Shown: positions 17,701 to 64,000 of the stretch, in pieces | How positions within the stretch are numbered: position 1 is the stretch's first letter | Layout of the letters: every line of letters starts with the position of its first letter | Assembly (NCBI RefSeq): GCF_011630105.1 | Contig: NW_022727368.1 | Span: forward strand, 169,157-233,156 | Direction: 5' to 3' | Origin: Anneissia japonica | Lineage: Eukaryota | Length of the DNA stretch: 64,000 bases | Program-made: the position numbers and the translations under genes | The notes under the pieces: model-generated | What the model saw: only the letters and a program-made list of their open reading frames with translations | Databases searched by the model: none | Told to the model about the DNA's origin: nothing

Positions 17701-18620
17701 AGTCTGGAGCCAGGCCTAGGATAGTATGGCCAGCCTAGCCTACCCCGCCCGGCCTACTACTAGAGCCTTAGACCTTGGTCCTCTGCTCGCTACGCCTAGA
17801 GAGAGGGCCTGCTAGGCCTAGGCCTAGGCCATATAGATTTACCAAGATTTGCATGAACATGAAAGAACATGAAAAAACCTTTCAATATTCTAAATGGCCT
17901 AGGCCTAATACTAAATTCTACAGAATGCATGTAAAATAACACTTTCGGGCCTTCTAAACAGATTTACTTAACGTTGAAAAAATTGAAAAACTACCACTCA
18001 GATTTGCTTTTTTAATATGCGCGCCATCTGAAAGTTTCCGCAATGGGGAAATCCTCACATAGCATAGAGGGCGCATTCTCCTTGAATATTTTTAGATGTG
18101 ACGTAATGATGTTGTTATTAAAGTTTTTGTAATGAAAGATGGTGGTAGACGTAACATGAGAAGTTAGTTTTATTGCGCTAAATATATTACATATTATTTA
18201 TTTCATATTCGGAGTTATGACATAATGTCATTATTTTATTATCCATGTTAATTAATCGAAATTGTAGGCCTAGGCCATAGCAGCCAACTACAACTTAACC
18301 AGGGCCTAGCTAGGCCTACTACTAGCCAAAGTAGCTAGGCCTAGCCCCTCCTCCTAGGCTAGTCTAGCTTGCTAGGCCTAGTCTAAGTTAGAGAGTATGA
18401 CTTTCCTTCCGCCAACCTCGATCGGACTACCTTTCCATGGATGGGGCGAGGAGGGAACCCGATGTGGAGTTGCTGGCAAGAGACTGAGGCCTCATTAGAC
18501 TAGAGTCTAGGCTAGGCCATTGCTAGTCTATCTAATGTAGTCCTAACAGTCTATCTAGACTAGCTTGCAAGGGCAAGTAGTATAGATAGATAGGCCTAGC
18601 CTAGTAGAAGTAGAGCGAAG
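17440..18620. promoter_or_regulatory. Divergent-promoter region rich in the palindromic motif CTAGGCCTAG / TAGGCC (more than 25 occurrences in 1.2 kb), immediately upstream of the putative PARP4-like 5' exon.
   Basis: Motif density seen by eye. The region sits between two head-to-head genes, and locally GC/CpG-richer patches occur at 18000-18080 and 18400-18480. Confidence 0.3.
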
Positions 18621-18704
18621 AAGTCTGGCCTTTTGCTGATATCATGCTCCGGATGTTTGCACGACTGACTGAGTTGTGGACAACCTATCTTCTGAATCAG
18701 TTAG
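18620..18704 (+). other. PARP4: Putative non-coding 5' exon of the PARP4-like gene, ending at donor CAGTTAG|gtacgt.
   Basis: Strong donor consensus 1.1 kb upstream of the first coding-exon acceptor. The TSS was not determined. Confidence 0.25.
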
Positions 18705-19838
18705 GTACGTGACAACAAATTTTAAATGCAAGGAATTTAACAAACAGATTGGTTTGATGATGAGGTCAAAGAGGAAAATGTTAACTATGTCATCAGTATT
18801 TTCAGGTCATAGGGAAAAGATAAATACGACCTCTGCAGCCAAAACAATAGAGGGCTATGTAGACAGTCGAGTTACTTGCAGAAAATGATCGCGGTGCCAT
18901 GATATCGCGCTCTCAACAGCCGATAGTCACATACCTAAATCAGTTATTCACACAACTTCTCATGCGAACAACTAGAACAGTTACGGCAGTGGTTCCCAAC
19001 CTTTTTGCGGACCCCCATGACCAAATATTACTCATTGTCCATATCTCAACAATCGGATTAGGCCTACAGATAGAAGATGATTTGTCATGAAACTAGAACA
19101 TTAAACAATGGCAAATCCTGGAATTTAAAATAAAAGCCATCACGTCAATATGGTACAACATTTTTTATGTCTACGCCACTTCTAGGTGGCCGGAAATAGC
19201 ACTGTCAGACTCAAAATTTGAAGGTAATTTTCTTTTATTCCCATCCCACATGGTTGATATTCTGCCAATAAGATTATTGATGGAAAATAATAAGCCAAAT
19301 TACAACATCTTGGATCTTGGAATTCGACATAAACAAGAGGGGAGTGGTTCAGCAGATAGGGGATTTACGCTACCCTGGTTGGGGCTGAGGTAGGAAAATG
19401 TTTATATTTCTGGCACTTGTAGATGGCTGGAAATGACACTGTCAGACTCAACATTTGAATGTAATATTCTGTTATCCCCCATTTACTTTTTATTTACTCA
19501 AATTGAGGGCTCCCTCCTAATTTTTTTTTTTTATTTATTCAATATTCAGGTAAAAGCAATTATGGGCCGCACACATAGGGTTTGTAATTCATTTTCGCAG
19601 GCTACAAAAAAAATCACTCCGAGGCACATGTGGCCCACGGGCTGGCACCTTGCCTACCTGTGCTAAAAACCATGACAGACAAGTTTGCAACAGGATTTTA
19701 CTTTCCTACTTAGGCGAGACTTATTTTTATACACTGTTTGTTTGTACTCGCCTGGGTGGGGTTAATGTGATACAGTATCTCACGCATAGCTAGGCTATCA
19801 ACACTGCTGATTTGTATAATTTATCTTGTTCTAAATAG

Positions 19839-20008
19839 GATTCCTGTTTTAGTTGTGGCAGGTATTTGGATACGATATGTCAAGTCTTTTCAAAGGCTAC
19901 CACTTTGCTCTTGAGCTGGACTTCAGCTTCCGGTATAAGCAGAAGCAAGAACTGAAAAAGAAAATAACCAACAATGGTGGAGTGATATCATATGCTCTGA
20001 CAAAAGAG
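19839..20008 (+). CDS. PARP4: PARP4-like exon 1. ATG at 19877. MSSLFKGYHFALELDFSFRYKQKQELKKKITNNGGVISYALTKE, the BRCT N-terminus.
   Basis: Acceptor ctaaatag| and donor GAG|gtagaa. Aligns with the human PARP4 N-terminus (…KKKLQTDIKENGGKFSFSLNPQ). Confidence 0.6.
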
Positions 20009-20913
20009 GTAGAATTTATTTTTATTCAAAATATTCACTCTTAGGATGTAGTTGATTTTGAATGCAGACTTCTCAAGTACTACGGACCTTAGTGTTTAAT
20101 GTTTTTGCCGCTTTCTTGCCCATAACTTTTGTAATATTACAAGCAATTTGGCCCATTGGGCCACCATTTGTAATACCTCTGAGTGTTTTATCAATAAAGT
20201 GAAGTGAATTTCCGTAGTTAGGCCTAGTTTCTTCAGAAATTTTGCTTAATTACGAACGTACGGAAATAGACAAAAATACAATGGAATTGATCATAGGCCT
20301 ATACCCAAAAAATATATAAGTCCAGAGCAAATTACTTTGGTTACATTGTCCCTAGAGCTGGGCCCAGAGAGTGACTTTTACAGATGGAGAGTGTAGACCA
20401 CCTCAGCCCCACCATGGTTGGGGCTTAGGTAAGAAAAATTATGATTATGGCACCTCTGTTGGTCAGAAATGGCACTCTCAGACTGAATTTGAATATAATT
20501 TTAATTTTATGTTTATGCAAGGAAAAAATAAATTCTCCAGGGCATTTATTCAAGGGAGGCGTTAATTCCAAATGAGGCTCTAAATGGGGTGTGTTTTTCT
20601 AGGCATTGGGAGTTTATTCGAAATAGGGCGTTTATTTTTTGGTATGAATATGTGGACAATAAAGTACCTATTATTGTTTAAGTTATTTATTTGTTTGCCT
20701 ACTATCTGTAATGATATTGCTATATTAGTATTGATATATATTATATTATATATACCATTACTATATTGTATATAGCCATATTTTTAGTACAATTTAATTA
20801 CTAAGGTCTTAATGCATTTGATTGTATATAATATGTATCACCTTATTCCAGTCTTAGAAATCAAGGTAAAGCACTTAGTGATTTCATTAAATACGTTTAA
20901 TTTAGCAATAATT

Positions 20914-20917
<4 letters not shown>

Positions 20918-20960: not shown

Positions 20961-20964
<4 letters not shown>

Positions 20965-21229
20965 CAAACTTCCTAATTGTCAGCAGTATCAACCAAGCTA
21001 ATACCACATATAAAGGACGAACTGCGCAGAAGAATGGAACGCCGATAGTAACTATTTTGTTTATCAGCAGATGTGTTAAGGAAGGCCGAGTTGTTGACCC
21101 CACTGCCTATCTTGCTAATGGTAGCAAGCAACTAGCAGGATTTGAAAGGGGGAAAATACAAGGTATGGATGGGAAGATCAATACAACCTAAAGCATAGCT
21201 TATTCTCTGTCCTCACTTTCAATTTTCCT

Positions 21230-21337: not shown

Positions 21338-22118
21338 CTTAACACAATTTATTTTTTTTAATGTTAAAGCAGATTGAATAGGTTTGCAATATTTGTTAAA
21401 TTATTTTTTTCATTATTTAAAATATTAATGGTTCACATTTTTGTTCATTTTATTTTCGTTTTTAGTATTCCAGTATTTTAATTATTTTTTTTTTTTATTG
21501 TTATTACTATTATTATTATTTCTGTTATTATTTTCTTTATTGTTATTGTTGTTGTTAATGTTGTTGTTGCTGTTATTGCTACTTTTGTTGATGTTGTTGT
21601 TGTTTGTTGTTAGTATTAGTATTATTATTATTTTAATTATGAATATTTTGATGTTGTTTTGAATATATTTAATTATGTATTAAAATATTATTATTTTTCA
21701 ACTTTACAGTACTTTCATTTTTATAATTTCACTTAAATTGAAAGCTTAAACTTATATATGAATAGCTTAATGTAAGAAATAATTATTGAACTACTAATAC
21801 CTGTGCCTGTATTTTCTTCCAGTTAAAAACCCTCTCAAGAAATCAGCCACAGCTAAGTCATCTACATTCAATTTGAAAGCGTTTCCGTATGTTTGTTTTT
21901 TACACATCCAATCATAAACTTTGAAAGTATTTTCATGTGGTAGTATACTTACACGACATTTACACATACAAGGGTCGTAGGCCACCTTTGAGTTTGTCTC
22001 TGTTCTCAAAATGCACTTATAGTACACAGACAGCACTGCAATTTCAGAATAAAATATGCTGGCTTGGGGCCCGGCAATAATTAGACATTTCTGCATATTT
22101 AGCATTGAACATCTTTAG

Positions 22119-22200: not shown

Positions 22201-22261
22201 GTAAAACAAATCTTCATTGCTTACTTCCAACTTAATTTTTAAAATGCATTATTTATCAGAG

Positions 22262-22338
22262 TCTGGACATGGGGTGACAACAAGGCTCCTGACTTCAATG
22301 AAGACAGTTATGAAGTGGCTAAGAGCTGTCTCCTCTTG
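22262..22338 (+). CDS. PARP4: PARP4-like exon 3 (VWTWGDNKAPDFNEDSYEVAKSCLLL), BRCT C-terminus.
   Basis: Uses the second AG of cagag| so that phase matches. Donor TTG|gtaagt. The motif APDF..SYEVAKSCLLL resembles human NPDFIWKSIREKRLL. Confidence 0.45.
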
Positions 22339-23472: not shown

Positions 23473-23622
23473 AAGTCATCAAGGTCCAATGATGGTGACC
23501 TGTTTTACCAACTTGAACTTCATGTTTTGCCGCTTGCCAGCCAAGCATCTGAAAATGAAGAAAACAAATACCTGTACCGTTTTCGAGTTTTCTGCCATTA
23601 TGGAAACTGCAAGGAAATCAAG
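23473..23622 (+). CDS. PARP4: PARP4-like exon 4 (KSSRSNDGDLFYQLELHVLPLASQASENEENKYLYRFRVFCHYGNCKEIK).
   Basis: Acceptor ttataaacag| and donor AAG|gtgggt. 150 nt, phase 0. Confidence 0.5.
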
Positions 23623-25558: not shown

Positions 25559-25720
25559 AATGAATCTAGTGGTGAAAGAGAATTCCGTTACTTAACTTCT
25601 AGTTCTGATGCCCTCAACGTATATTCACAGTTATACCGGATCATGACGTTCCCGGACAAAGGATACAAGAAGTGTAATAAGTTTATTTCAAGGTGGATTG
25701 GGTCTGATAAACAGAGAAAG
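25559..25720 (+). CDS. PARP4: PARP4-like exon 5 (NESSGEREFRYLTSSSDALNVYSQLYRIMTFPDKGYKKCNKFISRWIGSDKQRK).
   Basis: Acceptor tgtttcag| and donor AAG|gtagac. An upstream alternative donor AAG|gtggat at 25692 would break phase. Confidence 0.45.
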
Positions 25721-26235: not shown

Positions 26236-26373
26236 ATTTCACTGGAGTCTAGCTATGAATCTGGTGCCACATCAACTGAGGTAGTTGATTTAGTGGAGCA
26301 CATTTGGCAAGAGGCAAATGAGCAAATTAAGGGGATGTTGTCTTTACCTGAAGAAACCATGAAAAAAGAACAG
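26236..26373 (+). CDS. PARP4: PARP4-like exon 6 (ISLESSYESGATSTEVVDLVEHIWQEANEQIKGMLSLPEETMKKEQ).
   Basis: Acceptor tttgtttaag| and donor CAG|gtaagt. Aligns with the human EVSDLVEMIWAEALGHLEHML segment. Confidence 0.55.
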
Positions 26374-26562
26374 GTAAGTGAAGTCTATTAGAATTACTTT
26401 TATGTTGAACCAAAAAATGTAACAATAGATTACCTGTAACGTGAAGTCTGTTTTGTGAATACATACTTGGATAAACGAACAACAAAGGAATAAAGATGGT
26501 GCTTGGGCATAGCTGCAGTCACATACTGGGACAATCAGACTGTTCTATTTTTGTTGTAGGGG

Positions 26563-26585
26563 TGTTCTTAAATGATCAGTTGCAA
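26563..26585 (+). CDS. PARP4: Possible 23-nt micro-exon (LQLVCLS, phase 0 in and 2 out) needed to restore frame between exons 6 and 7. Its donor CTG|gtaagtatctcactcatagaatac is a DIRS-terminus fragment.
   Basis: Inferred from the phase requirement and a strong donor. The acceptor (aaatgatcag|) is weak. Confidence 0.25.
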
Positions 26586-27396
26586 TTAGTTTGTTTATCC
26601 TGGTAAGTATCTCACTCATAGAATACAAATATCACTGATTTATGTAATTTCTGTCGAAACAAAAATATCTAGTAGATTATTATCAAAATTATAAGACTAC
26701 CCCTGTGTTTTTTTATCGTAATTTGCTATTTGAAGCCTTGTCTTACACGCGAGGCATGTTTTTTGCATATTGGTTAAGTTGTAGCAAAAATTGAAATTCA
26801 AGTTATTGGTATTTGCATATACCTGTGTATGTAATCTATGAGGGGTCATGCATTGGAATTGGACATGTCAAGTCTTAGTTATTGGGAAGAGAATGTACAG
26901 CACTCCTAGAGTCAAGATAAACATTATTTTGAGTAAATGCCTTTCAAATTTTTTTTTTTTTTGCATACACTGTTTAATGGCAATAACTACAGTACCAAAA
27001 TAATGTTAAATAAACAATTTGTTGACCAGACCAGAACTAAGAATTTAAGACATGATTAATTAGGAATTAAACTTTGATCTATAGTGAAAAAAAAATGATT
27101 TTTAGGTCATTTTTGAGTTCCCATAAGTTATAGCTCATTTTACTGAATACTTTTTGCCAAGACATGCCTCATAAATTCTATGCACTCTATGAATTGACTG
27201 CCATTTGTTGTTATTATTAAAGCCTAAATTTACACAAATTGATAGCATCATTGTAATTAAATTTTCAAGCTTGAGTTATATCTCATCAACAGCTATCATA
27301 CATTTCAAGTGAACTTTGTTTTTGCTGTTCTTTCATTAGGTTGATAAACAAACTTTGGAACAATAATGAGTTGAATGTAATGCTTCTATTTTGTAG

Positions 27397-27534
27397 CAGA
27401 AACAATTTTGACATCAGGAACATATTTGCTGTTAGTCGATCAATTGAAGAAACAAACTTTACGCATCGCCTTGGAAACAAGAAACTTCTATTCCATGCAT
27501 CAAACCCTGCCAACTTCGTGGGGATATTTACAAG
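27397..27534 (+). CDS. PARP4: PARP4-like exon 7 (RNNFDIRNIFAVSRSIEETNFTHRLGNKKLLFHASNPANFVGIFT…). First catalytic-domain exon, with H-A-S in the position of the H-G-S motif.
   Basis: Acceptor ttttgtag| and donor ACAAG|gttggt. Aligns with human VLQIFRVGRVNETTEFLSKLGNVRPLLHGSPVQNIVGIL. Confidence 0.6.
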
Positions 27535-28296: not shown

Positions 28297-28395
28297 AGGT
28301 CTTCTCCTGCCTAAGATAGTAGTGAGTGATTTCGGTGGCAAGAGAAGGGATCCTGGCAACCTTGGAAGTGGAATTTATTTTACAGACAGCAGCAG
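28297..28395 (+). CDS. PARP4: PARP4-like exon 8 (RGLLLPKIVVSDFGGKRRDPGNLGSGIYFTDSSS), PARP catalytic.
   Basis: Acceptor tattgtag| and donor AGCAG|gtagga. Near-identical to human RGLLLPKVVEDRGVQRTDVGNLGSGIYFSDSLS. Confidence 0.7.
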
Positions 28396-28829: not shown

Positions 28830-29013
28830 TACAAGTGCCAAGTATTCATCTCGAAGTACAGTTAAAGGATCCCGATTCATGCTGGTTAATGAAGTTGCCC
28901 TTGGCAAGTGTCTGGATATGACAACTAAGAATTATAAACTATCGTCTGCTCCAGAGGGCTACAATAGTGTCCATGCCGTTAAGAGAGCAGTTGGGAAGAA
29001 GTCAGTTTTTGAG
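28830..29013 (+). CDS. PARP4: PARP4-like exon 9 (STSAKYSSRSTVKGSRFMLVNEVALGKCLDMTTKNYKLSSAPEGYNSVHAVKRAVGKKSVFE), PARP catalytic.
   Basis: Acceptor ttctgttag| and donor GAG|gtaatt. Matches human TSIKYSHPGETDGTRLLLICDVALGKCMDLHEKDFSLTEAPPGYDSVHGV. Confidence 0.7.
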
Positions 29014-29890
29014 GTAATTAAAATAAATCTGCCACCTTGTTTTTCAAGATAGAATTCTACCTATGTTTATAATGATGTCTACTGTATAGTTATATATCAT
29101 TAAATATTTAATGACCTGATTATTTAAAACTTCATTATTGATGTTTCTACCCTAAATAAATTATTTACAATTTTTTTTATGAAATCGCCTCCTAGAAAAG
29201 CCATAATCCACTTTCAAGTAAGGAGTTAAATATTTATTTCTTATATTTATATGCCCTGAAATGCTTGCACCTAGTGCTGAAACATAGCCTGAGCCACTTC
29301 ACAGCCCATCACAAACGATGCAAATTGGGGTATCTGTGCTGTCCAGATAATTACATATCTTGGTATTATTGGCAAAAGTTAGAAACTATATATACACATT
29401 TCATGTAGGGAATGTCTTGTAGAAAATTTATTGTTACAAATTGACGAATATAAAATATACACCTATTTGGTCACATTTTGACTGATGACTTCATACACAT
29501 ACAATACATACTTCATTCAAAAAAAACTTTCCATTATGGCTATTTTGTGAGTAGTTACTGAGTTCTTATCAACTGAATCAAAGTGGGATGTCACATTTTA
29601 TGCGATGGAAATTTTTGTGAGGTCTTGACATGTACTGGGCCCTTTTTACTGGGCCCTTTGAGAGAACAGTAGCATTTTACTGAAGAAGAAACCCAGTATA
29701 AAGAACAAATAAAAAGAAAATAAATAAATGTACAATGTTTTTGATTGAATCTAACCCATCTTTCAAAGACATTTTTAGAAGCCTATGTTAAGAAAAAGAA
29801 GAAAACTGGATACACTCTTTAATTGAACAACTTGTGTTCCATATATTTTACCCATTTTATATTTTCTACCTTCTGGCGGTTCTCTTGCAG

Positions 29891-30041
29891 GATAACGAGT
29901 ATGTTGTGTATGATGCATGTCAGCAGCGTATTCGTTACCTCATCGAGTTTGCACTGCCTGAAGATAAGATCATAAGCTTTATTCAGAAATCTCTAAAGGA
30001 AACGCTGGATGAAATTGATGATTCACAAATGATGGATATTA
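29891..30041 (+). CDS. PARP4: PARP4-like exon 10 (DNEYVVYDACQQRIRYLIEFALPEDKIISFIQKSLKETLDEIDDSQMMDI), containing the catalytic Glu of the H-Y-E triad.
   Basis: Acceptor tctcttgcag| and donor TTA|gtgagt. Matches human DDEFVVYKTNQVKMKYIIKFSMPGDQ. Confidence 0.65.
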
Positions 30042-30062
30042 GTGAGTAGCTAATGCAATGTA

Positions 30063-30360
30063 TCATATGATTGGAGTGGAGTTAAATAGCTTGGTGGTTA
30101 AGATGCTTGCATTCCAATCCCAGGGTCATGGGTTCAATTCCTGTCAGTTGCAGGACTTTTTCTCACGACCAAAACAACTCCACTCCCTAAACCTCATATT
30201 GAGATTTAGTTTGTGTACAGCATTATGTGTGTATGTTTGTCTTGTGTTTCGTGGACTGTTCTATGTGTACTGGGCCCTCTGGGAGAACAGTAATTTGTTA
30301 CTGAAGAGGAAACCCAGTATAAAGAACAAATAAATAAATAAATAAAATAAATAACTAAAA
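30063..30360 (+). mobile_element. SINE (tRNA-like head …ggttcaattcctgtcag…, tail …gtactgggccct.tgggagaacagta…actgaagaggaaacccagtataaagaacaaataaataaa). Partial copies at 45095-45200 and 29620-29740.
   Basis: Shared head or tail blocks among the copies. (AAATAA)n-like tail. Confidence 0.45.
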
Positions 30361-30613
30361 AAGAAACAATACAAAATCAGACACAACAATAAACATACAA
30401 ACCAAAAATATGGAAATATATAATCAAACACGCAAAAAAAAATATACAAACCGATTCAAATTATTTAATAAATTGTGATAACTTCTATATTTGGGGGTTT
30501 TTTTTGGGGTTACTCTATAAATGCATCTCAAGTTTTAATAGTTATTTTGTACAAATTAATAGGCGATTAAAAGAAGTTGAATTGAAATATTTATTTTTCT
30601 ATTGATAATTTAG

Positions 30614-30744
30614 GTATAGCTGATATACAATCACTGCAGGATCCATTGGACAAGGTGCAGGCAGGGTTACAATCCAAAGACAATTGTTCTGTTCCACTGA
30701 CAGCAGTACACATCAGAGCCAAGCTTATTGACCTCGCTGCCCAG
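30614..30744 (+). CDS. PARP4: PARP4-like exon 11 (SIADIQSLQDPLDKVQAGLQSKDNCSVPLTAVHIRAKLIDLAAQ), start of the VIT region.
   Basis: Acceptor taatttag| and donor CAG|gttagg. Resembles human NLVPLEDVHIKGRIIDTVAQV. Confidence 0.55.
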
Positions 30745-31907
30745 GTTAGGCTTATCACATGTATATTTTCTGTGTGTCTTAGGTGAACTGAGAGATATTA
30801 GGAATGATCTGACAATATCAGTAGATAAACTGATCTTACTTAATAGCTAAGTATACGCCAAATAAGGACATGCATGCCCAGTGGGGAATCCAGTAGTTTG
30901 AAATGGAGGACCCATGAGGGAGGGACTTTAAGAAGTGGAAGTCTACACTACCTCAGCCCATCCATAGTTGGGGTTGAGATTTAAACTTATGGTTATGGTA
31001 CATGTAGATGGCCCGAATTAGCACTCTCAAACTTAAAATTTGAGTATAATAATATTTAATTGGCTGGGACCCCCTTGATTCTGCCATTAAAGCCAACCGA
31101 TATTTTGATCTTTATAATAGATCATCATGCGGAATGACATGTAATCAATATTTCCAATTACAAATACCAAAAGATTTATAACAATTAACTAATGAAAAGA
31201 AGTTTAAAAATTTAACCAATATGATATCCGATGGTGTAAATGAGTAAATTATTATAAGTTCAGAGAAGTATTATCCACAAACATGAGAGGTAAAAAGTCA
31301 GTCAATAAACAGAGAGTGCTAAAGTCTTCTGCAAGTCGCGGTAGTCCGCACTCCTGTGGAGTACTCTTGAAAAATCATTCATTTCTCGCAAATTCTTTAT
31401 ATTTTTATGTTTTTACTACTGTATTATCAATCGTTTGGAATGCAGTGCCAAAGTATATCACCATGTACAGCAATATAAAATCGTATGTGTTAAGAAAGTT
31501 CATTTCTTAACAAATTGAATTGAACCGAGGACCTAGATATCTTTAGGTTCCCAGTTCAATTCCCGCTGCTCTCCTTGCGTTTCAGCTGGAGGGCTTAAGC
31601 GCAAGTTGCAATAGTACACCTTCTTTCGGATGAGACATTTAAGCCGTTTAAGGTCTCATGTGCATTATGGCCCATGTGAATGTTAAAGAACACAGTACAC
31701 TATTTGGAAAAGAATAGAGAATTGTCTCCCGGTGTACTGCAAAATCATCACCGGAAGGACTCCACAGGAAGTCTTTAGACGTTTGTGGGTTATCTTTGGT
31801 GTTTACACCGAATAGATCCATCCATCCATTTAACCAAGTCTCCCAGATATGGCTTCTTCCAACTTGGGACCCCTGTAAACGTAGCTTGTTAATGTCACCT
31901 TTGATAG

Positions 31908-32126
31908 GTTGTGGTATTGCAAGCCTACAGAAACGAAAACAGTTGCGCGATTGAGGCTAAGTATGTGTTTCCACTGGATGACATGGCCGCAGTATGTGGC
32001 TTCGAGGCTTTCATTGATGGCAAACACATTGTTGGTGAGGTCAAGGATAAAGATGTCGCTCATCGGGAATACAGAGAGGCTATTAGCAAAGGTCACGGTG
32101 CATACCTGATGGATGAAGAAACACCT
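31908..32126 (+). CDS. PARP4: PARP4-like exon 12 (VVVLQAYRNENSCAIEAKYVFPLDDMAAVCGFEAFIDGKHIVGEVKDKDVAHREYREAISKGHGAYLMDEETP), VIT domain.
   Basis: Acceptor tttgatag| and donor CCT|gtaagt. Strong match to human IEAKYIFPLDDKAAVCGFEAFINGKHIVGEIKEKEEAQQEYLEAVTQGHGAYLM. Confidence 0.75.
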
Positions 32127-32766: not shown

Positions 32767-32969
32767 GATGTCTTCACGGTTAGTGTAGGCAATCTGCCTC
32801 CAAACTCAGAAGTGTTGATCAAGATTACGTACGTAGCGGAACTAGCGGTAGATTGTGGGAATATTGTGTTTAATCTTCCGGGAAGCGTAGCTCCTTGGAA
32901 AAAAGATGGTGCTTTATCTGTGAAAACTCAAGCAGAGCTATTGACAAAGAAAATTTCTGGTCTGCCTGG
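32767..32969 (+). CDS. PARP4: PARP4-like exon 13 (DVFTVSVGNLPPNSEVLIKITYVAELAVDCGNIVFNLPGSVAPWKKDGALSVKTQAELLTKKISGLP), VIT domain.
   Basis: Acceptor cacctag| and donor CCTGG|gtaaat. Matches human DVFTVSVGNLPPKAKVLIKITYITELSILG. Confidence 0.75.
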
Positions 32970-50928: not shown

Positions 50929-50934
<6 letters not shown>

Positions 50935-50996
<62 letters not shown>

Positions 50997-51065
50997 AGTA
51001 TTATTATTATCATTATTTTATTATTATTGTTATTATTTTTATTATTGTTCTTATTATTCTTATTC
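50935..51065. repeat. (ATT)n microsatellite, about 40 units.
   Basis: Direct inspection. Explains the poly-Ile ORF 50747..51013. Confidence 0.9.
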
Positions 51066-51486: not shown

Positions 51487-52252
51487 GTAAGTACAGTGTC
51501 ACTCTTACCAAATCATAATTAATTAACCATAATTGTTAATTACTTGTACAATGCTACTTCCTGTCTGCTTTCATTATTTTCTTGTAAAAACTTAATAATA
51601 TCTAGCAAAATTTATAATTAATAAATAAATAATAATAAATTAAATATTAAAGATATAATAAGAATTATTGATTAAAGAGAGGATAATCTTGGCAGCATCA
51701 GTCTCAGAAGTGAAAGTTCAAAGATGAAGAGAGTTCCATAATTTTGAAAACTTACTTTAGCAATTTGAAGTTTAGTAGGTGAAAAAGTGAAAACCTACTT
51801 AAATGGCAATTTGAATACAAGAATCTAAGTTAAGTTAAAAGTTCAATGACAATTTGAATACAAGAATCTATGTTAAGTTAAATGGCAATTTGAATACAAG
51901 AATCTAAGTTTTAAAGTGTATTTAGAGTTTCATAATTTTTGCAATTTTAATATATAATCTATGGTAGGTGGATGGGCATTCCATAATTAAACATATTTAA
52001 AACACATCCTTATATCAACCGGGCCATTCATGCGACGTGCCCTATTAGTGGTAATGGCAGTAATGTACAGTCCTTTTTGAAACCCTTGTTTTTTTTTTGT
52101 AGGTGTAGGGGATCCCTGGGGACCAACTTAAAAAAGGCAATGAACGTTATTAACAACAAAAACAAGAAAAGGAGTTAGGTGCTTTTTTATAGTAGTAGCT
52201 TTTACTGGGACTAAACCTAATTGTCAGAATGACCGTAGTATCATGACCATTG

Positions 52253-54685
52253 TTCCCAAAACGGAACACCCCTTCGAAAAAAAATGGAACAGTCCGACCC
52301 AAGGCGCCACGTGCGAACCGTCTCCCTAACAAACGTCCTCATTCCCTTTTTGACGTTGTTCGAAGTCGGATACATTCTAGCCTTTGAAAATTACTAGCAG
52401 ACTTTTCAAGCAATTCTGTTCTCCTTGGATTTATTTTTGCTTTGGATTTATTTTTGCCTTGGATTTATTTTCAACTTGTGGTTGACAAGATATCCTTTTT
52501 ATTGTAGTCTCGTACGTATCAGTTCAAAGTTCTTCCCTTCGGTCTATCCACAGCTCCTCGGGTGTTTACACGGGTGGTAAAATCCCTAGGTGCAGTGTTC
52601 CATGCGAGAGGGATACGTATTTTCATGTACCTAGACGACTGGCTCGTGTTCGCAAATTCCCGAGCAACTCTGTTGCATCATCTCAGCATTGTCTTAGACA
52701 TGACGGAAACAGTAGGGTTCATTATCAACCGGGAGAAATCGGTTTTGGTTCCCACGCAACTTCCGCTGTATCTGGGGGCGCACATCGATCTTGTTAGTTC
52801 AGTGGCGTTCCCCTCCACGAGTCGGATCCGCAAGTGCCAGCTAGCAATCACTCAGCTTCTTTCCCTTCCGGATTCCCCAGCCGAGTCGTGGCTGCGGATG
52901 TTGGGGTTTCTCGCGAGCCTGGTAGACCTAGTTCCTTATTGCCAGCTTCATATGCGCCCTCTTCTACTGCATCTGCTCGCGTTTTTCTCTCCAGCATCTC
53001 GGGACTTGTCAGCTCAGATTCCCTTGAATGCATTTGTCGCCAGGCACCTCCGGTGGTGGCTTCAGGGGAACGTGCTTCAGGGTTCCCCGACCCTCTCCCC
53101 GTCTTTCGCTCACGGAACGCGTCGTGGGGGACTGGTCGCTGGAAGAATCCACCAGTCACATAAACGTTCTGGAGCTTTTAGCAGTTCGTCGGTCTCTGGA
53201 GGCCTTCGTCGATCGGGCAAAGGGGAAAGCTATGCTAGTTCATTCCGAAAGTTCAACCGTGGTCTCCTACATCAACCATCAGGGCGGCACGCATTCACTA
53301 ACGCTATGCTTCCATACATGGCAGCTCCTGCTTTGGTGTCTCAGCCATCGCATTCATCTTCGAGCAGCTCACATTCCCGGCCGACTGAATGTCCTCGCTG
53401 ATGTGCTGTCTCGACGTCAGTTACCTCCACTCCGTCCGACGGAGTGGAGGCTGTGTCCGGTCGTGGCCCAGCATATTTTCAACACGTTTGGGCGTCCCAA
53501 CCTAGATCTGTTTGCGACGAGCTCGAACACTCAGCTTCCGACGTTTTGCTCCCGGTTTCCGGAACCAACAGCGTGGGCAGTGGATGCCCTGTCCATCTCA
53601 TGGGACGGGTTTTGGGCTTCGGGTTCCCGCCCTTATCGCTTCTTCCGAGGGTGATGGCGCACATCCGTCGCCCCCCATTGCAAGGTTCTCCTGATAGCGC
53701 CATGGTGGGCCCGCCAGGGTTGGTTCCCACTTCTGCTGAGTCTTCTCTTCGAGCATCCCTGTGTGTTGCCGGTTCATCCGGACCTTCTTCAACAGGCCCG
53801 GTCGTGGGTCGGCCTGAACCATTTAACATCGCTGAACTTGACTGTTTGGCCCTTATCCGGGATAATCTCCAAGGTTCAGGCATTCCAGATGGCCCTGCCG
53901 CCATCTACAACAGTCGCCTTAAGCACTTCCTCCTGTGGTGTACCGATCACGAAGTGGATCCTATGTCAGCCTCTCTGGGTCAGGTGTGTCTCTTTTTGCA
54001 TTATCTGTTTGAGTCGGGTCTCAGATTCGCATTTGTTTGTGTCTTCAGTTCGGCCCCACGGGCCTGCTTCTGTTGATACCATTGCTCGCTGGGTGGTTTC
54101 GGCCATCCAAGCTGCTATGCGTCGGCTCGCAAGCCGCCGCCTGCCCACATGCATGAGGTTCGCGGCACGGCGGCTTCTTGGGCTCTCTTTTACGGGGTCC
54201 CCCCTCGCCGACATTCTGGCAGCGGCATGGTGGAGATCGGAGACTACATTTTCATCTTGCTACTTGTGGGATGTCTTGTCGACCCAGGCGTCAGTAGCGG
54301 CTGCTGTGTTGAAGCCGTCTCTGTAGGTAAGTCTTCTGGTTTCTGATCACGCCCGCCTCCTCTTTACGCTGCTAATCTGGCAATTAGTCGGTTATCCAGG
54401 TAAGTATTCACAAAGTAGACTACACAAATCAATCGTGATGTTGGTAGTCTATGAGTGAGATACTTACCTGGATAACCTTCCCTCCCTTCCTACCCTCGCC
54501 GTGATCGTGTCGATCTTTAGGGAATGAGGACGTTTGTTAGGGAGACGGTTCGCACGTGGCGCCTTGGGTAGGACTGTTCCATTTTTTTTTTCGAAGGGGT
54601 GTTCCGTTTTGGGAACAATGGCAATTAGTCGGTTATCCAGGTAAGTATCTCACTCATAGACTACCAACATCACGATTGATTTGTG
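52253..54685 (+). mobile_element. Truncated, frameshifted DIRS-like tyrosine-recombinase retroelement. RT (YLDDW), RNase H (HINVLELLAV), the AFPPF…APWWPRQGWFP region and a YR domain (HEVRGTAASWA … AGRWRSETTF … Y).
   Basis: Inverted terminal repeats 52253-52355 and 54521-54623 are reverse complements of about 103 bp. An internal complementary hairpin lies at 54371-54490. ORFs 52562..54326 sit in three frames. Confidence 0.7.
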
Positions 54686-55216
54686 TAATTTGATGCATGC
54701 TACATTGTTTAATGGAGGAATAAGTTTAGAATGAAATTAAATTCATGGAAGAATTTAAACTGATTCCTCCATGATTGTATATTGCACTTGTCTTGGTGGA
54801 GATTAACCAGTGATGGTATCAAATGACAGATTTCTATAGGACAATGTATTGTTTACTTGTGCTAAAGAATGGAGTGCAGTCATTTCATTAATGTAAAATT
54901 AGCAGAAAATATTGTGATTTAATGGTTAAAGGAATATATTGCTAACATAGCTGACATTCTGTTAAATAGATGTGCAGGATAATGCACCTCTAAATGATAG
55001 GAAGCTTTTGATTTGTGCAACAACGCGACACTAAAACTGATTCACTCATGCATGACCGCCCTGTATTCTTTGCACAACATATATTTGGCCAAATTGCTTC
55101 CTGGAATTCACGCAACCCTGTGAACTCAACGTTCTCGCATTCCCAAATGACTTCATGAGGACAGCTCGCTTAACATCCAGATGCTACATCTTTTATCAAT
55201 TCTTTATCTTTTTTAG

Positions 55217-55264: not shown

Positions 55265-56189
55265 GTAAGTATCATTCTTATCAATGCATAATTAATTAAT
55301 CATAATTATCAATTACCTGTGCAATGTTTCTTCAGGTCTTTTTTCATTCTTTTTCTTGTAAATATTTCTTGAAATCCACATATCCTGGAATTTACACATC
55401 CGAAAATGCTTATCAGGTCAACAAGGACACAAGTTCACATCCACACCTGTCCACTACTATATCGTATTGCACGTAAACACATTGGTAGTTGTCATCAGAA
55501 TGCTAACTCCCATCTTTGAATAGAGTTTTTCTTATTGAGGTTTCTCGAAAGTGTCCCCTTGATTAGGAGTTCCACTGCATATCGAAGTACTGTAGTGTCT
55601 CGTAACAAAAATATGTTACTATTTGATAAGCATACTTATTAAAAAAAATAATTATCTAAAGTAGCTTTTCAAAGATTTGTTGATTTCCATCATTTTCATC
55701 TGACTGTTAATTATGACAGTGGTTGCTAGCACCTTTCTCATGTTTTGATTCGATAATGCCCACTATTTTAGCTAGTAGGCACTAAAGGGTAAATGCCCGT
55801 CAATAGTAGGTCTAGACAAATAAGGAGCACAGGATGCGAATGAGTAACACAACACCGTAAAGTTTCTAAAATTACAAGACCAAAACAATTCAACAAACAT
55901 CTGTCTGACTAAGATTATAGTATGCTGCCGGCGCAAATTACTAACAATAGCTAATATGTTATCAAGTTATTTTATTTAAGAAATGTTTTTTTTTTCGATG
56001 TTTTCATAGGAATCTTCTGATTTTTACAGTATATAATTTTAACACTTAAGCTTTTCTGTATAATTTTTTTGAGATGAGACCCAGATGCAATCCAACTACA
56101 CTCAACAATTCACTCACGACCCAAACTTGGGTTGCCGATGGGTTGCCGATGTTAGATCTAGAGGTGCTATGTACATAAAATTGTGTACC

Positions 56190-56300
56190 TAACCCCAGCC
56201 ATGGTGGGGCTCATGTAGTGTAGAACCTTCATTTGTCATAGTTCTTCCCTGCACCCCCTCTATTTCAAATTCCTGGATTTTCCATTGTTCCCCAAGTTCA
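56190..56300. repeat. Dispersed short repeat family with core CCATGGTTGGGGCTGAGG … CTCTATTTCAAATTCCTGGAT. At least 10 copies (5285-5400, 19330-19480, 20395-20530, 30940-31090, 36700-36830, 56520-56650, 56810-56950, 57175-57300, 58085-58220, 61030-61450).
   Basis: Recurrent conserved blocks in both orientations. One copy accompanies each mini-exon unit at 56-58 kb. Confidence 0.5.
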
Positions 56301-56373
56301 GTACAATAATGAATGCAGAACTTGAGACCGGTGATGTTTAATTTATTTTTATTATTGTATTAATTAGATTCAG

Positions 56374-56421
56374 CTCTCTCACGTCCATTGTCTGACCTTA
56401 GTATGAAGGATGAAGAAAATG
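56374..56421 (+). CDS. PARP4: Array mini-exon (LSRPLSDLSMKDEEN), phase 1/1.
   Basis: Acceptor ttagattcag| and donor AATG|gtaagt. First of four 48-nt paralogues. Confidence 0.35.
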
Positions 56422-57016
56422 GTAAGTATAAATAAAAGTGACTTGTACAGTATTATTGTGATCAGATATTCTTATTACTGGACAGCAGACAAAAACTAAA
56501 GTCTTATAGTGCCATGTCTGGTCATCTAGAGGTGCTATAATCATAAATTGTTGGGGCTGAAGTGATCTAGACCCCCCCCCCATCTGTGAAAGTCCCTTCC
56601 TGGACCACTCTATTTGGAATTCCTTGATCCGCCAATGACACCCGTGGTCCATATGTTCACTAGTCTTTATATGATTCATTGGTCAATGATCAATGTTATT
56701 TTTTTTTTAAATATTCTCTATTGTATCTGTAGATGCTTTTCTGTACTTTTCACTCACGACCCAAACCTGGGTCACTACCCATGGGTTGCCGATGTTAGAT
56801 CTAGAGGTGCTATGTACATAAAATTGTGTACCTAACCCCAGCCATGGTGGGGCTCATGTAGTGTAGAACCTTCATTTGTCAAAGTTCTTCCCTGCGCCCC
56901 CTCTATTTCAAATTCCTGGATTTGCCATTGTTCCCCAAGTTCAGTACAATAATGAATGCAGCACTTGAGACCGGTGATGTTTAATTTATTTTTATTATTG
57001 TATTAATTAGATTCAG

Positions 57017-57064
57017 ATATCTTACCTCCAATGCATATGCTTAGTATGAAGGATGGAGAAAGTG
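57017..57064 (+). CDS. PARP4: Array mini-exon (ILPPMHMLSMKDGES), phase 1/1.
   Basis: Identical splice context (attagattcag| … |gtaagtataaataaaagtg) to the 56374 unit. Confidence 0.35.
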
Positions 57065-57381
57065 GTAAGTATAAATAAAAGTGACTTCTATTATTGTGAT
57101 CTGATATTCTTCTTACTAGACATCACACAAAAACCACCCAAAAAAAGTCTTAGAAATGCCATGTCTGGTCATCTAGAGGTGCTATAATCATTAATTGTTG
57201 GGGCTGAAGTGATCTAGACCCCCCCCCATCTGTGAAAGTCCCTCCCTGGACCACTCTATTTTGAATTCCTAGATCCGCCAATGACACCTGTGGTATCATT
57301 GACTAGTCTTTATATGATTCGTAGGTCAATGATCAGTGTCAATGATCAATTTTTTTTTATTATTGTATTAATTAGATTCAG

Positions 57382-57429
57382 CTATGGCACAACCAACCCG
57401 AATGCGTAGTTTTGAGGAAGAAGACAATG
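57382..57429 (+). CDS. PARP4: Array mini-exon (MAQPTRMRSFEEEDN), phase 1/1.
   Basis: Same unit structure as the other 48-nt paralogues. RMRSF followed by an acidic tail. Confidence 0.35.
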
Positions 57430-57568
57430 GTAAGTAAAAATAAAAGTGGTTTGTATTATTGTGATCAGATTTTATTCTTATTGGAAATCAGACAAAAACC
57501 ACTAAGGATGATTTGTAGGTCAATGATAAGTGCTATTTTTTTTTTAATGTTCTCTATTGTATCTGTAG

Positions 57569-57613
57569 ATGCTGATGAGCCGAATCATAGTGCCTTTTTC
57601 TGGAGAGCCAGAG
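57569..57613 (+). CDS. PARP4: Array mini-exon (ADEPNHSAFFWRAR), phase 1/1.
   Basis: Acceptor atctgtag| and donor AGAG|gtttgt. A paralogous copy at 56737 is disrupted by a SINE. Confidence 0.3.
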
Positions 57614-58276
57614 GTTTGTAACTGCTTTTGTTTTCTTGTAAATATTTTATCAAAATAAATTACTCTTTTATTAGTACTGTACTTCATTTTTACATTTACG
57701 TGCATACAAGTCGATAAGGAATTTGTATACAGAGAAACTGTGAAAATATTGCACTTTCAAGTTTCTAAAACTACAAGACCAAAACAATTCAACAAACGTC
57801 TGTCTGACTGAGATTATTGTATACTGCTGGCACAAATTAAAGACAATAGCCAATATGTTATCAAATTATTTTATTTTTAAGAAATGTTTTGTTTCGATGT
57901 TTTCACAGGAATCTTCTGGTTTTTACATTAATTTTAACACTTATGCTTTTCTGTATAATTTTTTGAGATGAGACCCAAATGCGATCCAACGACACTCAAA
58001 AATTCACTCACGACCCAAACTTGGGTCACTACCCATGGGTTGCCGACCGTAGATCTAGAGGTGCTATAAACATAAATTGTGTACTAACCCTAGCCATGGT
58101 GATGCTCATCAGGTAGTGCTAAGAACCTTCATTTGTCAAAGTCCCACCCTCCCCCTCTATTTCAAATTCCTGGATTTGCCACTGTTCCCCTATTTTCATT
58201 ACAATAATGAATACAGAACTTATTTGGGACCTGTCATGTTTAATTTTTTTTTTATTATTGTATTAATTAGATTCAG

Positions 58277-58324
58277 CTAGGGCACGACCAACACGAATGC
58301 GTAGTTTTGGGAAAGAAGAAAACA
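58277..58324 (+). CDS. PARP4: Array mini-exon (RARPTRMRSFGKEEN), phase 1/1.
   Basis: Same unit as the 57382 exon, at 78 percent nucleotide identity. Confidence 0.35.
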
Positions 58325-59825
58325 GTAAGTAAAAATAAAAGTGGTTTGTATTATTGTGATCAGATATTATTCTAATTGGAAATCAGACAAAAACCACCAA
58401 GGACAATAACCACCAGACAAACACCAACCAAAACTGATTATACCATTGTTAAAGCGGGGTGGACAGTTGGGTAGACTTGTATATATCTAGCTATACAATA
58501 GGATAGTTTACATTCTGACTTCCTATTATACACTTATAGAAAAATACTTGCTTCCTAGCCTAGCCTACCATCCCACTAGGTACCCATTTATACTTAATTA
58601 TTATACAAATTATTGATCGCACAGAACTCCTCAGATGTTATTTTCGGGCATATAGAATACAAAATTTTCCTGGGGTAGTGTTGTCTCTCGATCGCACCCC
58701 CTCTGGCCTTTCGAACATCTATGGATCTGCTCCTGATAGGGAGCTGTCGATTTGCACAAGGACGCAACTCTTGAACAGATTCAGCCACTGCACTACATAG
58801 ATTTGGTCAAATTGCATTCTAGAATCCACACGACCAGGAGAGCTTAACATTTTCGCATGCACAGATGACTTTTCAGTGACGTCCTTACATTCCACATCCC
58901 ACCACGTTATGGTGCTAACGTCCCAGACCTATTAAAAACTGATCAATAAATCAAAGACTTTCTAGAATGGATTGTCATGTTCCAAGGAAGGAATGATTAA
59001 ATTTTGTTAACGATTTGGAGTAGGTGTGGATATGAGGGCTATATAAAGGGAACTTCCCAGGCCAGATGTTTTAAAAATAATAAATGTGGTAAAGACAAGC
59101 CAAACCAGTCACACATCGCAAATTGTGTTTCAGAGAAAATAGCAAAAACATACTAGAATGTAAAATTTTTTTTAATCTATTTTATTTCACTAAACTGAGG
59201 TTTATGTACAGTATGTATACATCATGCTGTGCTGATATTTTTCCCAATTTCTATGTTAAAACAACACTTTTAAAAGATTTTATGATTGTTTCTGCATGAG
59301 AAATGCCTGAAATCATAAACTTTGAAGGCTGATTTCTCATATATTGTTCTTTAAACAGCTGTATGCTTAAATGCTTGTAACTTCATAAGTAAATGTTGGA
59401 TTTGAATGATTTTTTTACCATTTCATAGCTCTTATTTTACTCTTTAACCCTGTATTAATAACAACGAGTGACTGGTTTGGCTTGTCTTTGCCAATGCATC
59501 TGAAAACCTTTCTGGATTTTTTCATCATGGCTAAAGAAAATAGTATGCATTAGGGTGTGTATGTGGAAACCCTTAAAATTGAACGTCCCAGACCTAAATA
59601 TCTCAAAGACTGATCAATGAATCAACTGAATGAAACTTTCTAAAATGGTCTGTCATGGTTGATCTAAGGAACAATGATCAAAGGCTCCCAGTAGCTACCA
59701 GATCGCACATAACTAATAATGCATTCATATGAGCCAGTTGGTTATGTTCACTTTGTAAGCAAAAGCTCTCAGTTTCAATGGAGATTGAGAATGTTTTTCA
59801 TTCTTTAAATTTTTTTTTTCCCAAA

Positions 59826-59995
59826 AGGAAAACATGAATTGCTAATTAATACAGGAATGAAAGGTACGTCCTTTCCTCGACCACTACTAAAACAACAAAT
59901 GCAAAGTGCCAGCATTCCACCACCGCCACCGCCTCCGCCTGGACAAAGTTATGCATTTCCATCAGCAGACGTGCCAGCCTACGATATTTCAGGTA
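59826..59995 (+). CDS. PARP4: Pro-rich C-terminal-region exon(s). Either micro-exon KHELLINTGMK (donor AAAG|gtacgt at 59866), or read-through TSFPRPLLKQQMQSASIPPPPPPPPGQSYAFPSADVPAYDIS (donor TCAG|gtatga at 59995).
   Basis: Acceptor cccaaaag|. Open frame matching ORF 59839..60174. Two competing donors. Pro-rich, like the human PARP4 C-terminal region. Confidence 0.3.
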
Positions 59996-60261
59996 TGATT
60001 TACTGTACGTGCATTTACTGTGGCGTGCATTTTGATACTTGTAGTATGTATTATACTATCTTATCTGAGATTAATCAGTGGACCTTTCAGACTTGGTTCT
60101 ATCAACCAAACGCCAACTCCCCTTCCTCACCGCTTGACCACTTGACACAGATGTATTGGGGCCTGAACCCTTGATTCAAGCCCTAGTCAAACATCTAGGA
60201 ACCATGTAATATGAAATTGCCATATTTATTTTATTCTAATTATTGTATTTATTTGGTTTAA

Positions 60262-61547: not shown

Positions 61548-61650
61548 TCGGCCTACCCTACACTTAACCAGGTAGAACCAGTTAGAAATTCAGCCTTCCG
61601 TGAATCTGTAAGCCCACACAGCCAAGAAACCTTCAACAGTTGTGATAGTA
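61548..61650 (+). CDS. PARP4: Exon (SAYPTLNQVEPVRNSAFRESVSPHSQETFNSCD), phase 1/1.
   Basis: Acceptor aagtttcag| and donor GATA|gtaagt. Confidence 0.3.
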
Positions 61651-61978
61651 AGTAAACATTTTAAAATGGTTGTTAGTTATATTGTAACCATTAATCATTT
61701 TAGTTTCTTACTGAAAAATCAAAATACACATAAAAAAAAACTGCTGTTGCTGATGTTTGTTATAGAGAAAAAGTATAGTATTATAGAATCAACTGACTAT
61801 CAGTGTTGTTCCACTTTAAAAAATAAATTCCAATTGAGGCTTGATATTCACATTCTCCACATTATAAACTTTAAATTGATGAGTCATTTACTGGAATCGA
61901 CTGACTGCTGCCAAAGTTAAGAGTGAAAGTATTTTTTCACCGTGCAGAGGACTATAAACTATAGTATTTTATTTGTAG

Positions 61979-62035
61979 ATATATCATTTGAGTATACGGG
62001 ACCCGGCTGTGCATCTCTCGGAGGTACTGGCAATG
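61979..62035 (+). CDS. PARP4: Exon (ISFEYTGPGCASLGGTGN). Tandem-duplicated as 63229..63285 (ILCDMLSRGSSSPQLGAN).
   Basis: Acceptor tttgtag| and donor AATG|gtttgt in both copies. About 1.25-kb duplicated unit, 61700-62420 versus 62940-63600. Confidence 0.3.
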
Positions 62036-64000
62036 GTTTGTACTTCTTGTGTTTTCTTGTAATATAAAATGTTAAAGGCTGCGTTTATACAGCACTTATT
62101 ACTTTACGTTTTGTTATTTTTTGCTGCGAACCTTGGCCCAATGTTTCCGATATGTTATTTGATGAGAATCAGATAATTTATCAGAAGCAGCTCCAAAATA
62201 CTAAAAAAAATTAACTTTTGACCAAGGTCAAATTTCGGTACTGTACACACACAGAATTATTTTTTGGAACTTTAATTTGTGCGAATGTTCTCAGGCAACT
62301 AGGCCTATTATCAAAACACTTTAATAAATAGTGAGTAATTTTTTTCCGGCTTATTATTAAAAAAAAGACTTGACATCCACGGTGCAGCCCAGCTACCCTG
62401 GGCCTAGGTCTGACCATATTGTATATTGTACCGTAAAATACACCAATGCTGCATTCATTTTCGTTGATACTTCAAAATATATATATGTTATCTTTTTTTT
62501 TTTGTCTTAACTTTTTTTTTCATTTTCTTTCTTGTGTTTTCTTTTCTTTTCCTTACCTTTTCTCTCTTATGTTTCCTTATCTTTTTCTTCCCCTTTTCTT
62601 TCTTATGCTTCCTTTTTATTTTCATTTCTTTACTTTCTTATGTTTCCTTGACATATCCTTTTCCTTGTTAGTAGTATATTAAGAAATTTAATATTATTTG
62701 GCAATTCAAAATACTGAAGAAGAGTAAAGTACAAATTGAGTTTTTGCTTTAGTTAGTGAGTGTACTATTAATTAGTTAGTGAAGAATCTTTTTATTTGTG
62801 CGACGACGTGACACTAGAAAGGATTCACGCATGCGTGATCGTTCTATATTTTCTGCACAACGTTCTCACATGCGCCAATGACTTTATGTGATGCCATTAC
62901 ATTCTACCGTCGTCGTGAAATTGAAAGTTCCCTATTACTTTTTCTATAATTGCTGTTGCTGATGTTTGTTATAGTGGAAAAGTATTTTATTATAGAATGA
63001 AATATCAGTTGTTTTTTTTTTTTTCATAAAAAAAAAACAATTGAAGTTTGCCATCCCAAAACCTGCATCAGCAACCAAAAAATGATATTGACTTTTTGAT
63101 ATTCACATTCTCCACATTATAAACTTTAAATTGATGGGTAATTTACTGGAATCGACTGACTGTTGCCAAAGTTGTGAGTGAAAGTATTTTGTCACTGTGC
63201 ATATTATTTTGTCTTTATTTTATTTGTAGATATACTATGTGATATGTTATCCCGTGGATCATCATCTCCCCAACTTGGTGCCAATGGTTTGTAACTTCTT
63301 GTGTTTTCTTGTAAAATAAAATGTTTTGGGCTCTGTTTCTGCAGGACTTACTACTTTACATTTTGTTATTTTTCATTGCAAACCTGTGCTCAAAGTTTCC
63401 TATATATTACTTGATGAGAATCAGATAATTTATCGGAAACAACTCCAAAATACTAAAAAAATTTAACTTCTGACCAAGGTCAAATTACAGTTCAGTACAC
63501 GCAAAGAATTTTTTTGTACCCGTGGGAACTTCTTTAATTTGTGAAAATGTTTGTTAGGCAACTAGGCCCAGTATCTTTTCAGTCAGTCAGTCAACAGTAG
63601 ATTTTCTTTGTAGCAAGTCAATAATCCAATCAATCCTGGGACTGTGGTTATTGGCATGAGTTGCAGAGTGGAAACACATTCTTCTTAGGTCAATATTAAA
63701 ATTAGGATATTTCTCTTGGACAGATGATGAGAGCTCCGATCCCTGGACAGACAGGATTATTACCAGCTTTATTTTACATATTTGTCTATACTTAGTCCTA
63801 TCCTCTTTTTCTTTTTCCGACCTTTAGCACATTCTCATCTGAGTTTTAAAGAAAAAATAGAATGATCCTGCCATCCTGCTAATCTTAATCGAGCTGATGG
63901 CCCCAACAAGCTAACCACCACCCACCACTACTAATTACATCTGCTATCTTGCTGTTATGTAAATATTCACGCATTCTTGTCATGAGCCATGTTCTTTGGA

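Follow-up and report, generated by a model that had tools for sequence, protein, structure and literature searches.

A PARP4 (vault PARP) orthologue in the feather star Anneissia japonica: an annotated locus lacking helical-subdomain exons in the assembly

Human PARP4 (VPARP, ARTD4) has an N-terminal part composed of BRCT, WGR, helical (HD) and ADP-ribosyltransferase (ART) domains in the order BRCT-WGR-HD-ART (PMC10450202) and docks to MVP through its C-terminal MINT domain, or MVP-interaction domain (MVPID), residues 1562/1570-1724 (PMC12280208, PMC10450202). The MVP residues which contact PARP4 are reported to be conserved only in vertebrates (PMC12280208). Vaults with bands of ~200 kDa have been purified from sea urchin and VPARP homologues are present in the sea urchin genome (PMC550661). 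An orthologue is also expected in crinoids. Here we describe a PARP4 locus in a 64,000-nucleotide stretch of Anneissia japonica (assembly GCF_011630105.1, contig NW_022727368.1, positions 169,157 to 233,156), which as a whole is called the window. A. japonica is a comatulid crinoid (feather star). The plus-strand interval from 19877 to ~43728 (to 45914 in the RefSeq model) is very probably a single-copy PARP4 orthologue, and both oddities of the locus discussed below are then faults of the assembly. Every residue of the RefSeq protein XP_033113003.1 ([quoted passage not shown], 1274 amino acids, aa) is found exactly on the plus strand of the window, therefore the window is that annotated locus. 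The PARP4 orthologue of this species is already known, and the novelty implied by a preliminary description of this DNA, made from the letters alone, does not hold. The window is AT-rich (GC ~35%) and contains no Ns.

The domain content of the locus agrees with PARP4. Pfam finds BRCT (aa 3-93), PARP (338-495), VIT (554-664) and VWA (804-956) in XP_033113003.1, which is the BRCT-PARP-VIT-vWA order the preliminary description had given. The E-values are 3e-36 for VIT, 3e-31 for PARP (PF00644, 109 bits against a cut-off of 26.7), 5e-19 for VWA_3, 2e-8 for BRCT and 8e-9 for BRCT_2; the VIT and VWA matches, proposed earlier as a check, are both well above their cut-offs. The obvious exons, roughly joined into a sequence to which XP_033113003.1 is 96% identical in a protein database search, gave similar results (PARP 6e-31, VIT 3e-37, VWA_3 2e-13), and the catalytic exons alone matched human PARP4 at 4e-44 and PARP2 at 8e-15 among solved structures. 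All of BRCT, PARP, VIT and vWA lie in a single GT-AG exon chain, with VIT and then vWA C-terminal to the catalytic domain. The histidine, tyrosine and glutamate motifs of the catalytic H-Y-E triad (LLFHAS, GSGIYF and DNEYVVY) align with human LLHGS, GSGIYFSDS and DDEFVVY, and the vWA MIDAS residues DxSxS, T and D are conserved.

A repaired protein of 1250 aa was composed of residues 1-308 of XP_033113003.1, the helical subdomain of a second, partial protein of the same species (XP_033127659.1) and exons 9-24 of the window. Its residues 5-1230 align with residues 6-1213 of the 1724 of human PARP4 in one collinear stretch (E 5e-257, 859 bits), while PARP3, PARP2 and PARP1 score in the range of 1e-19 to 1e-14 (PARP3 1.8e-19). 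This alignment, together with the Pfam matches to VIT, PARP, VWA_3 and BRCT, excludes chance, and the identification as PARP4 made in the preliminary description stands, the best solved-structure match being human PARP4 and not PARP1, PARP2 or PARP3. The WGR and catalytic chains of PARP1 align with the repaired protein from its residue 213 on, which fits the layout of human PARP4 (PMC10450202). The identity to human PARP4 (PARP4_HUMAN; PDB 11jf, 9bw6, 9bw7, 8sx1, 8swy) is ~46%, and over human residues 6-1213 the likeness includes the BRCT, WGR-like region, HD (in the species), ART, VIT, MIDAS-bearing vWA and the ITIH-like block after the vWA. The differences are that profile searches detected no counterpart of the human disordered linker and MVP-interaction domain in the window, and that helical-subdomain exons are missing from it.

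Among relatives of the protein in the protein database, the PARP4-like protein of Antedon mediterranea (XP_071956345.1) is 72% identical, hemichordate, mollusc and cnidarian PARP4 54-59% and vertebrate PARP4 45-50%; all of the named top matches are PARP4. The Antedon, Saccoglossus, Haliotis, Porites and Crassostrea models have the same domain order and match exon by exon. Homologues from six phyla could be followed in this way, with their residue 1 placed at 19877 and the alignment running on to ~43668-43743; the rest of the window has no match to them. The encoded protein would carry a PARP1-like N-terminal module of BRCT, WGR-like region, helical subdomain and ART domain with the H-Y-E triad. 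By homology, the product would be an NAD+-dependent ADP-ribosyltransferase with an ITIH-like module for protein binding.

Mapping of XP_033113003.1 to the window gives 27 exons (19877-45911) followed by a TAA stop at 45912-45914, with 26 of 26 introns being GT-AG. The twenty-plus exons of consistent phase reported previously are in that sense reproduced, for this model. Agreement of phases throughout breaks down at one place, between the end of exon 7 (26373, phase 0) and 27397 (phase 2), where helical exons are missing. Eight of the ten peptides quoted in the preliminary description are found exactly on the plus strand, at 28885-42692, and the other two are one residue off. One of these, GNLGSGIYFTDSS followed by S (the string GNLGSGIYFTDSSS), differs by one residue in the unspliced DNA and is correct once spliced, the last S being a split codon. 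The other, given as ITQFTSFIAVEERD (ITQFTSF...), reads VTQFTSFIAVEERD (VTQFTSF...) in the window; the I is the human residue. The gene model consists of the following features, where exons match XP_033113003.1 exactly and have GT-AG boundaries unless stated otherwise.

19877-20008, plus strand: exon 1, start codon and first half of BRCT (MSSLFKGYHFALELDF...), aa 1-44 of XP_033113003.1, GT donor
20964-21162, plus strand: exon 2, second half of BRCT
21823-21886, plus strand: exon 3, linker after BRCT, poorly conserved in homologues
22260-22338, plus strand: exon 4, VWTWGDNKAPDF..., beginning of the WGR-like region, 72% identity to Antedon
23473-23622, plus strand: exon 5, WGR-like region
25559-25720, plus strand: exon 6, WGR-like region
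26236-26373, plus strand: exon 7, initial helices of the helical (regulatory) subdomain, ending ...LPEETMKKEQ in phase 0
26374-27396, plus strand: “intron” of 1023 nt, where the helical-subdomain exons (~112 aa, VDKAES...KSNNE plus 2 nt) are expected and absent
26580-26602, plus strand: RefSeq exon 8, a 23-nt micro-exon (LQLVCLSW) with no counterpart in any homologue
27340-27396, plus strand: RefSeq 5' extension of exon 9 (LINKLWNNNELNVMLLFC, 57 nt), to which no homologue aligns
27397-27534, plus strand: conserved part of exon 9, beginning of the ART catalytic domain, His of H-Y-E (KKLLFHAS)
28297-28395, plus strand: exon 10, GLLLPK...GNLGSGIYFTDSS, Tyr of H-Y-E
28830-29013, plus strand: exon 11, catalytic domain (VNEVALGKC)
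29891-30041, plus strand: exon 12, DNEYVVY (Glu of H-Y-E), end of the ART domain
30614-30744, plus strand: exon 13, beginning of the ITIH-like region and VIT
31908-32126, plus strand: exon 14, VIT core (IEAKYVFPLDD...GHGAYLM), 86% identity to Antedon
32767-32969, plus strand: exon 15, end of VIT (DVFTVSVGNLPP)
33754-33841, plus strand: exon 16, ITIH-like region
34970-35107, plus strand: exon 17, ITIH-like region (VPRMWVERHPEK)
36246-36432, plus strand: exon 18, beginning of vWA, MIDAS DxSxS motif (LVLDLSNSM)
38620-38881, plus strand: exon 19, vWA (MGNTEVW, LISDGHINNE)
39168-39267, plus strand: exon 20, end of vWA
40332-40502, plus strand: exon 21, ITIH-like region after vWA
42009-42089, plus strand: exon 22
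42642-42824, plus strand: exon 23, the IRDWEDG...VTQFTSFIAVEERDK block
43576-43728, plus strand: exon 24, TDFVGAVFKPSINDLVANEDVDDLPYVCWEDT..., conserved, with no conserved exon after it
44058-44086, 44710-44882 and 45784-45911, plus strand: RefSeq exons 25-27, followed by TAA, an unconserved 3' end of low confidence

Neither of the outer limits given in the preliminary description was kept. It had placed the start at 18620; the start codon is at 19877, where it is aligned with residue 1 of the homologues. The interval 18620-19876 is not coding; its GC and CpG contents are slightly raised, and it may contain a promoter or, at most, a 5' untranslated region. A possible duplicated first exon at 18.7 kb ('MSSVFSGH', resembling 'MSSLFKGY') was rejected since its DNA shows no similarity to exon 1. 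The end had been placed at 63290; the last conserved exon ends at ~43728, the RefSeq stop is at 45912-45914, and the tail beyond is transposon and repeat sequence.

Several observations weigh against an intact and complete PARP4 gene at this locus. The window as assembled cannot encode an intact helical subdomain. RefSeq exons 25-27 are not conserved and have no match in any homologue, Antedon included. The MINT domain was not found in the six-frame open reading frames (ORFs) of the window, neither with a vertebrate profile (21 vertebrate domains drawn from homologue-search matches; best E 8) nor with an echinoderm-type profile of three C-termini (best E 1), in searches limited by the fast evolution and poor conservation of this domain and by a downstream assembly that is chimeric and unreliable.

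The first of these is best examined in comparison with other proteins. All homologues have ~110 residues between the equivalents of exons 7 and 9, and the window holds only the first helices of the helical subdomain, in exon 7. Pfam PARP_reg is absent in XP_033113003.1 and present in Antedon, Saccoglossus and Porites; these and other invertebrate models differ from the A. japonica one in keeping it within one model. For the helical-subdomain segments of six homologues no match was obtained anywhere in the window with a limit as loose as E 1000, and that of XP_033127659.1 has none either. XP_033127659.1 is a partial “PARP4-like” protein of 175 aa from A. japonica, encoded on a separate contig of 5392 bp. 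It begins with the same 13 residues (MLSLPEETMKKEQ) with which exon 7 of the window ends, and its last 50 (RNNFDIRNIF...FTRGLL) are identical to exon 9 and the beginning of exon 10, while the 112 residues in the middle are absent from the window and 60% identical to the helical subdomain of Antedon; PARP_reg scores 26.7 bits in it against a cut-off of 26.8. The conserved acceptor of exon 9 is tattttgtag/C at 27397, in phase 2, where XP_033127659.1 reads ...KSNNES/RNNFDIR. Direct splicing from exon 7, which ends in phase 0, would therefore shift the frame, and this mismatch of phases arises because the intervening helical-domain exons are missing from the window. The micro-exon (23 nt) and the acceptor extension (57 nt) together make 80 nt (2 mod 3), as needed to recover the frame lost with the helical-subdomain exons. 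The micro-exon at 26580-26602 is probably an artefact of the RefSeq gene model that restores the frame, and the extension at 27340-27396 is probably intronic. In other words, the real HD would be the one in the partial XP_033127659.1, with XP_033113003.1 being patched.

It could be argued that the loss is real, i.e. that the window carries a deletion allele or a decaying copy, which would give either a frameshifted null or an HD-less PARP4 made through 26580-26602 and 27340. There are no Ns and no adapter within 26374-27396 (the only adapter pair in the window is at 47349-47386, away from the helical-subdomain gap), and the RefSeq model has an in-frame GT-AG path. Against this, the other 23 conserved exons are all intact ORFs of high identity to Antedon, the bridging peptide has no homologue, and the intact HD is found on an unplaced contig of the same assembly whose flanking exons are 100% identical, a pattern typical of gaps and of haplotigs left unmerged. 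In addition, a proven assembly artefact lies 20 kb away on the same scaffold. We regard real loss as improbable and judge 26374-27396 to be a gap in the scaffold, or else a haplotype deletion, under a gene-model patch, not a biological loss of HD in the species.

The 3' end of the gene is less clear. The RefSeq 3' end of XP_033113003.1 is doubtful. The DNA of exon 27 also contains an ORF in another frame (45650-45880, ...FPCYAFRLWNNLPTDLR...), which we take to be transposon-derived, presumably a retroposon tail. In both RefSeq models from crinoids no more than ~110 aa follow the ITIH-like region, and the C-terminal tails of the invertebrate PARP4 models are all short and mutually unalike. The vertebrate MINT profile has no match in the crinoid or in most other invertebrate PARP4 models. 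The sea-cucumber model PIK52072.1, in which the linker is long and acidic and the end weakly MINT-like, matches it weakly (hmmsearch E 0.0025, hhalign 46%); only three relatives of its C-terminus were detectable with HMMER among 1.8 billion representative proteins, which supplied the echinoderm-type profile, and this C-terminus gave no tblastn match in the window. A search with exons 23-25 for crinoid proteins that would show the true C-terminus returned only four short ENA fragments. Two contigs of these fragments (ENA ERZ25070167) carry a compact PARP4 gene, equally close to Saccoglossus and crinoids, with nothing informative downstream of the exon-24 equivalent.

Judging from both crinoid RefSeq models and from most invertebrate ones, crinoid PARP4 may genuinely end soon after the ITIH-like region, without an MVP-interaction domain, a reading which we consider possible but rather unlikely. 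If it is true, PARP4 would not be docked to vaults in this lineage, and docking by MINT would have been acquired later or only in some lineages, in agreement with the vertebrate-only conservation of the contact residues of MVP (PMC12280208). An association of crinoid PARP4 with vaults is something we only infer.

Downstream of the gene the assembly itself is faulty. At 47349-47386 there is a perfect 38-nt sequence made of two back-to-back 19-nt Tn5 mosaic ends (CTGTCTCTTATACACATCT followed by AGATGTGTATAAGAGACAG), which is the Nextera mate-pair junction adapter; two perfect mosaic-end matches are present in the window against 0.02 expected by chance. It is translated as VSYTHLDVYKRQ, a contaminant peptide, in the ORF 47222-47419. 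This adapter, which is no part of the gene although it lies within the span drawn in the preliminary description, is an untrimmed library artefact and marks a chimeric join in the assembly. To the right of it, 47387-48448 is a 97-99% copy of 51788-52138 and 54684-55131, situated 4.4-6.7 kb downstream, and this second copy is split by ~2.3-2.5 kb of GC-rich DNA (51% GC). It looks as if two haplotypes, only one of them carrying a transposon insertion, had been assembled one after the other. The inserted sequence (~52200-54650, plus strand, 51% GC in a 35% background) is a retroelement fragment with a 5'-truncated reverse transcriptase (ORF 52508-53398, Pfam RVT_1 5e-15), followed by frameshifted ORFs whose motifs we take to resemble the RNase H and tyrosine recombinase of DIRS-like elements. 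Dispersed and tandem repeats with units of ~643 and ~1250 nt and 62-94% identity occupy 55850-58400 and 61840-63515, and a (TTA)45 low-complexity tract lies at 50929-51064. A short element with the ORF motif ...LH.RIHATR... recurs at 35.2, 48.3, 55.0, 58.7 and 62.8 kb, and looks like a SINE-like family spread across introns and the downstream region.

This composition bears on the possibility that the gene does extend to ~63290, with C-terminal exons (a Pro-rich linker and the MVP-interaction domain) hidden in 46-63 kb. Human PARP4 has ~500 residues beyond the aligned part (PMC10450202), a long acidic linker and a weak likeness to MINT are seen in the sea-cucumber model, and a Pro-rich ORF is found at 59809-60171. 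However, this ORF has only a sub-threshold match to DUF4656, and the interval is filled with the junction adapter, the 97-99% duplicated blocks, the reverse-transcriptase element and tandem repeats. Homologue alignments, the vertebrate MINT and echinoderm C-terminal profiles and tblastn revealed no PARP4-like coding sequence in 45.9-63.3 kb, and both crinoid models end shortly after the ITIH-like region. An extended gene thus has little chance of being the right explanation.

That the locus is another PARP (PARP1, PARP2 or PARP3) or a VIT-vWA gene of the ITIH or VWA5A type has hardly any chance of being correct: the ART fold is common to PARP1-3, and ITIH1, ITIH4 and VWA5A share the VIT-vWA (ITIH-like) module with crinoid PARP4 (PMC10450202), but these ITIH and VWA5A proteins lack BRCT and PARP modules and score 1e-13 or worse (ITIH4 1e-13, ITIH1 9e-10), while here PARP, VIT and vWA are in one exon chain which is collinear with PARP4 over ~1200 residues and whose score for PARP4 surpasses that for all other solved proteins by over 230 orders of magnitude.

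From all this we conclude that the locus is a PARP4 orthologue. Published surveys lead one to expect such a gene in an echinoderm, and it carries little weight as a discovery. The practical value is in curation: XP_033113003.1, which owing to a scaffold fault is without most of the helical regulatory subdomain, could be repaired with XP_033127659.1, its 3' end is doubtful, and the scaffold holds the untrimmed adapter. The current XP_033113003.1 model would mislead studies of PARP4 evolution, such as those on autoinhibition by HD or on how the vault-docking domain arose.

Some minor features of the gene and its surroundings were also recorded. From intron 20 into exon 21 (39355-40366) there are three tandem copies of a 333-nt unit with 88% identity, each of which ends in the 3' splice site of exon 21 and the first 30 nt of this exon (aaatgtaatag/GTCAAGAGTCAGTTATTGAAAGCAAGGCAA). 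As the copies carry the exon-21 acceptor, two decoy acceptors precede the real one by ~330 and ~660 nt. Intron 21 holds a long low-complexity tract of (ACAT/ACAC)n type at 41340-41750. In one of the two ERZ25070167 contigs (ctg360282, 547-1044; a “metagenome” assembly with an invertebrate locus) the 5' part of the exon-15 homologue (DVFTVSVGNLPP...) is present four times with a spacing of ~110 nt, and in the second contig there is one copy; these two contigs may be haplotypes or reflect long-read errors at ~2x coverage. A scan of the window with Rfam at its gathering thresholds gave no match. On the minus strand, 263-12442 is occupied by a neighboring gene with unusually large open exons (799, 203, 364, 462 and 178 aa from stop to stop). 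The ORFs of 799, 364, 462 and 178 aa have no Pfam match, and that of 799 aa has no match in PDB. These minus-strand ORFs are rich in Cys and in N-x-S/T sites, and the gene may encode an extracellular orphan protein.

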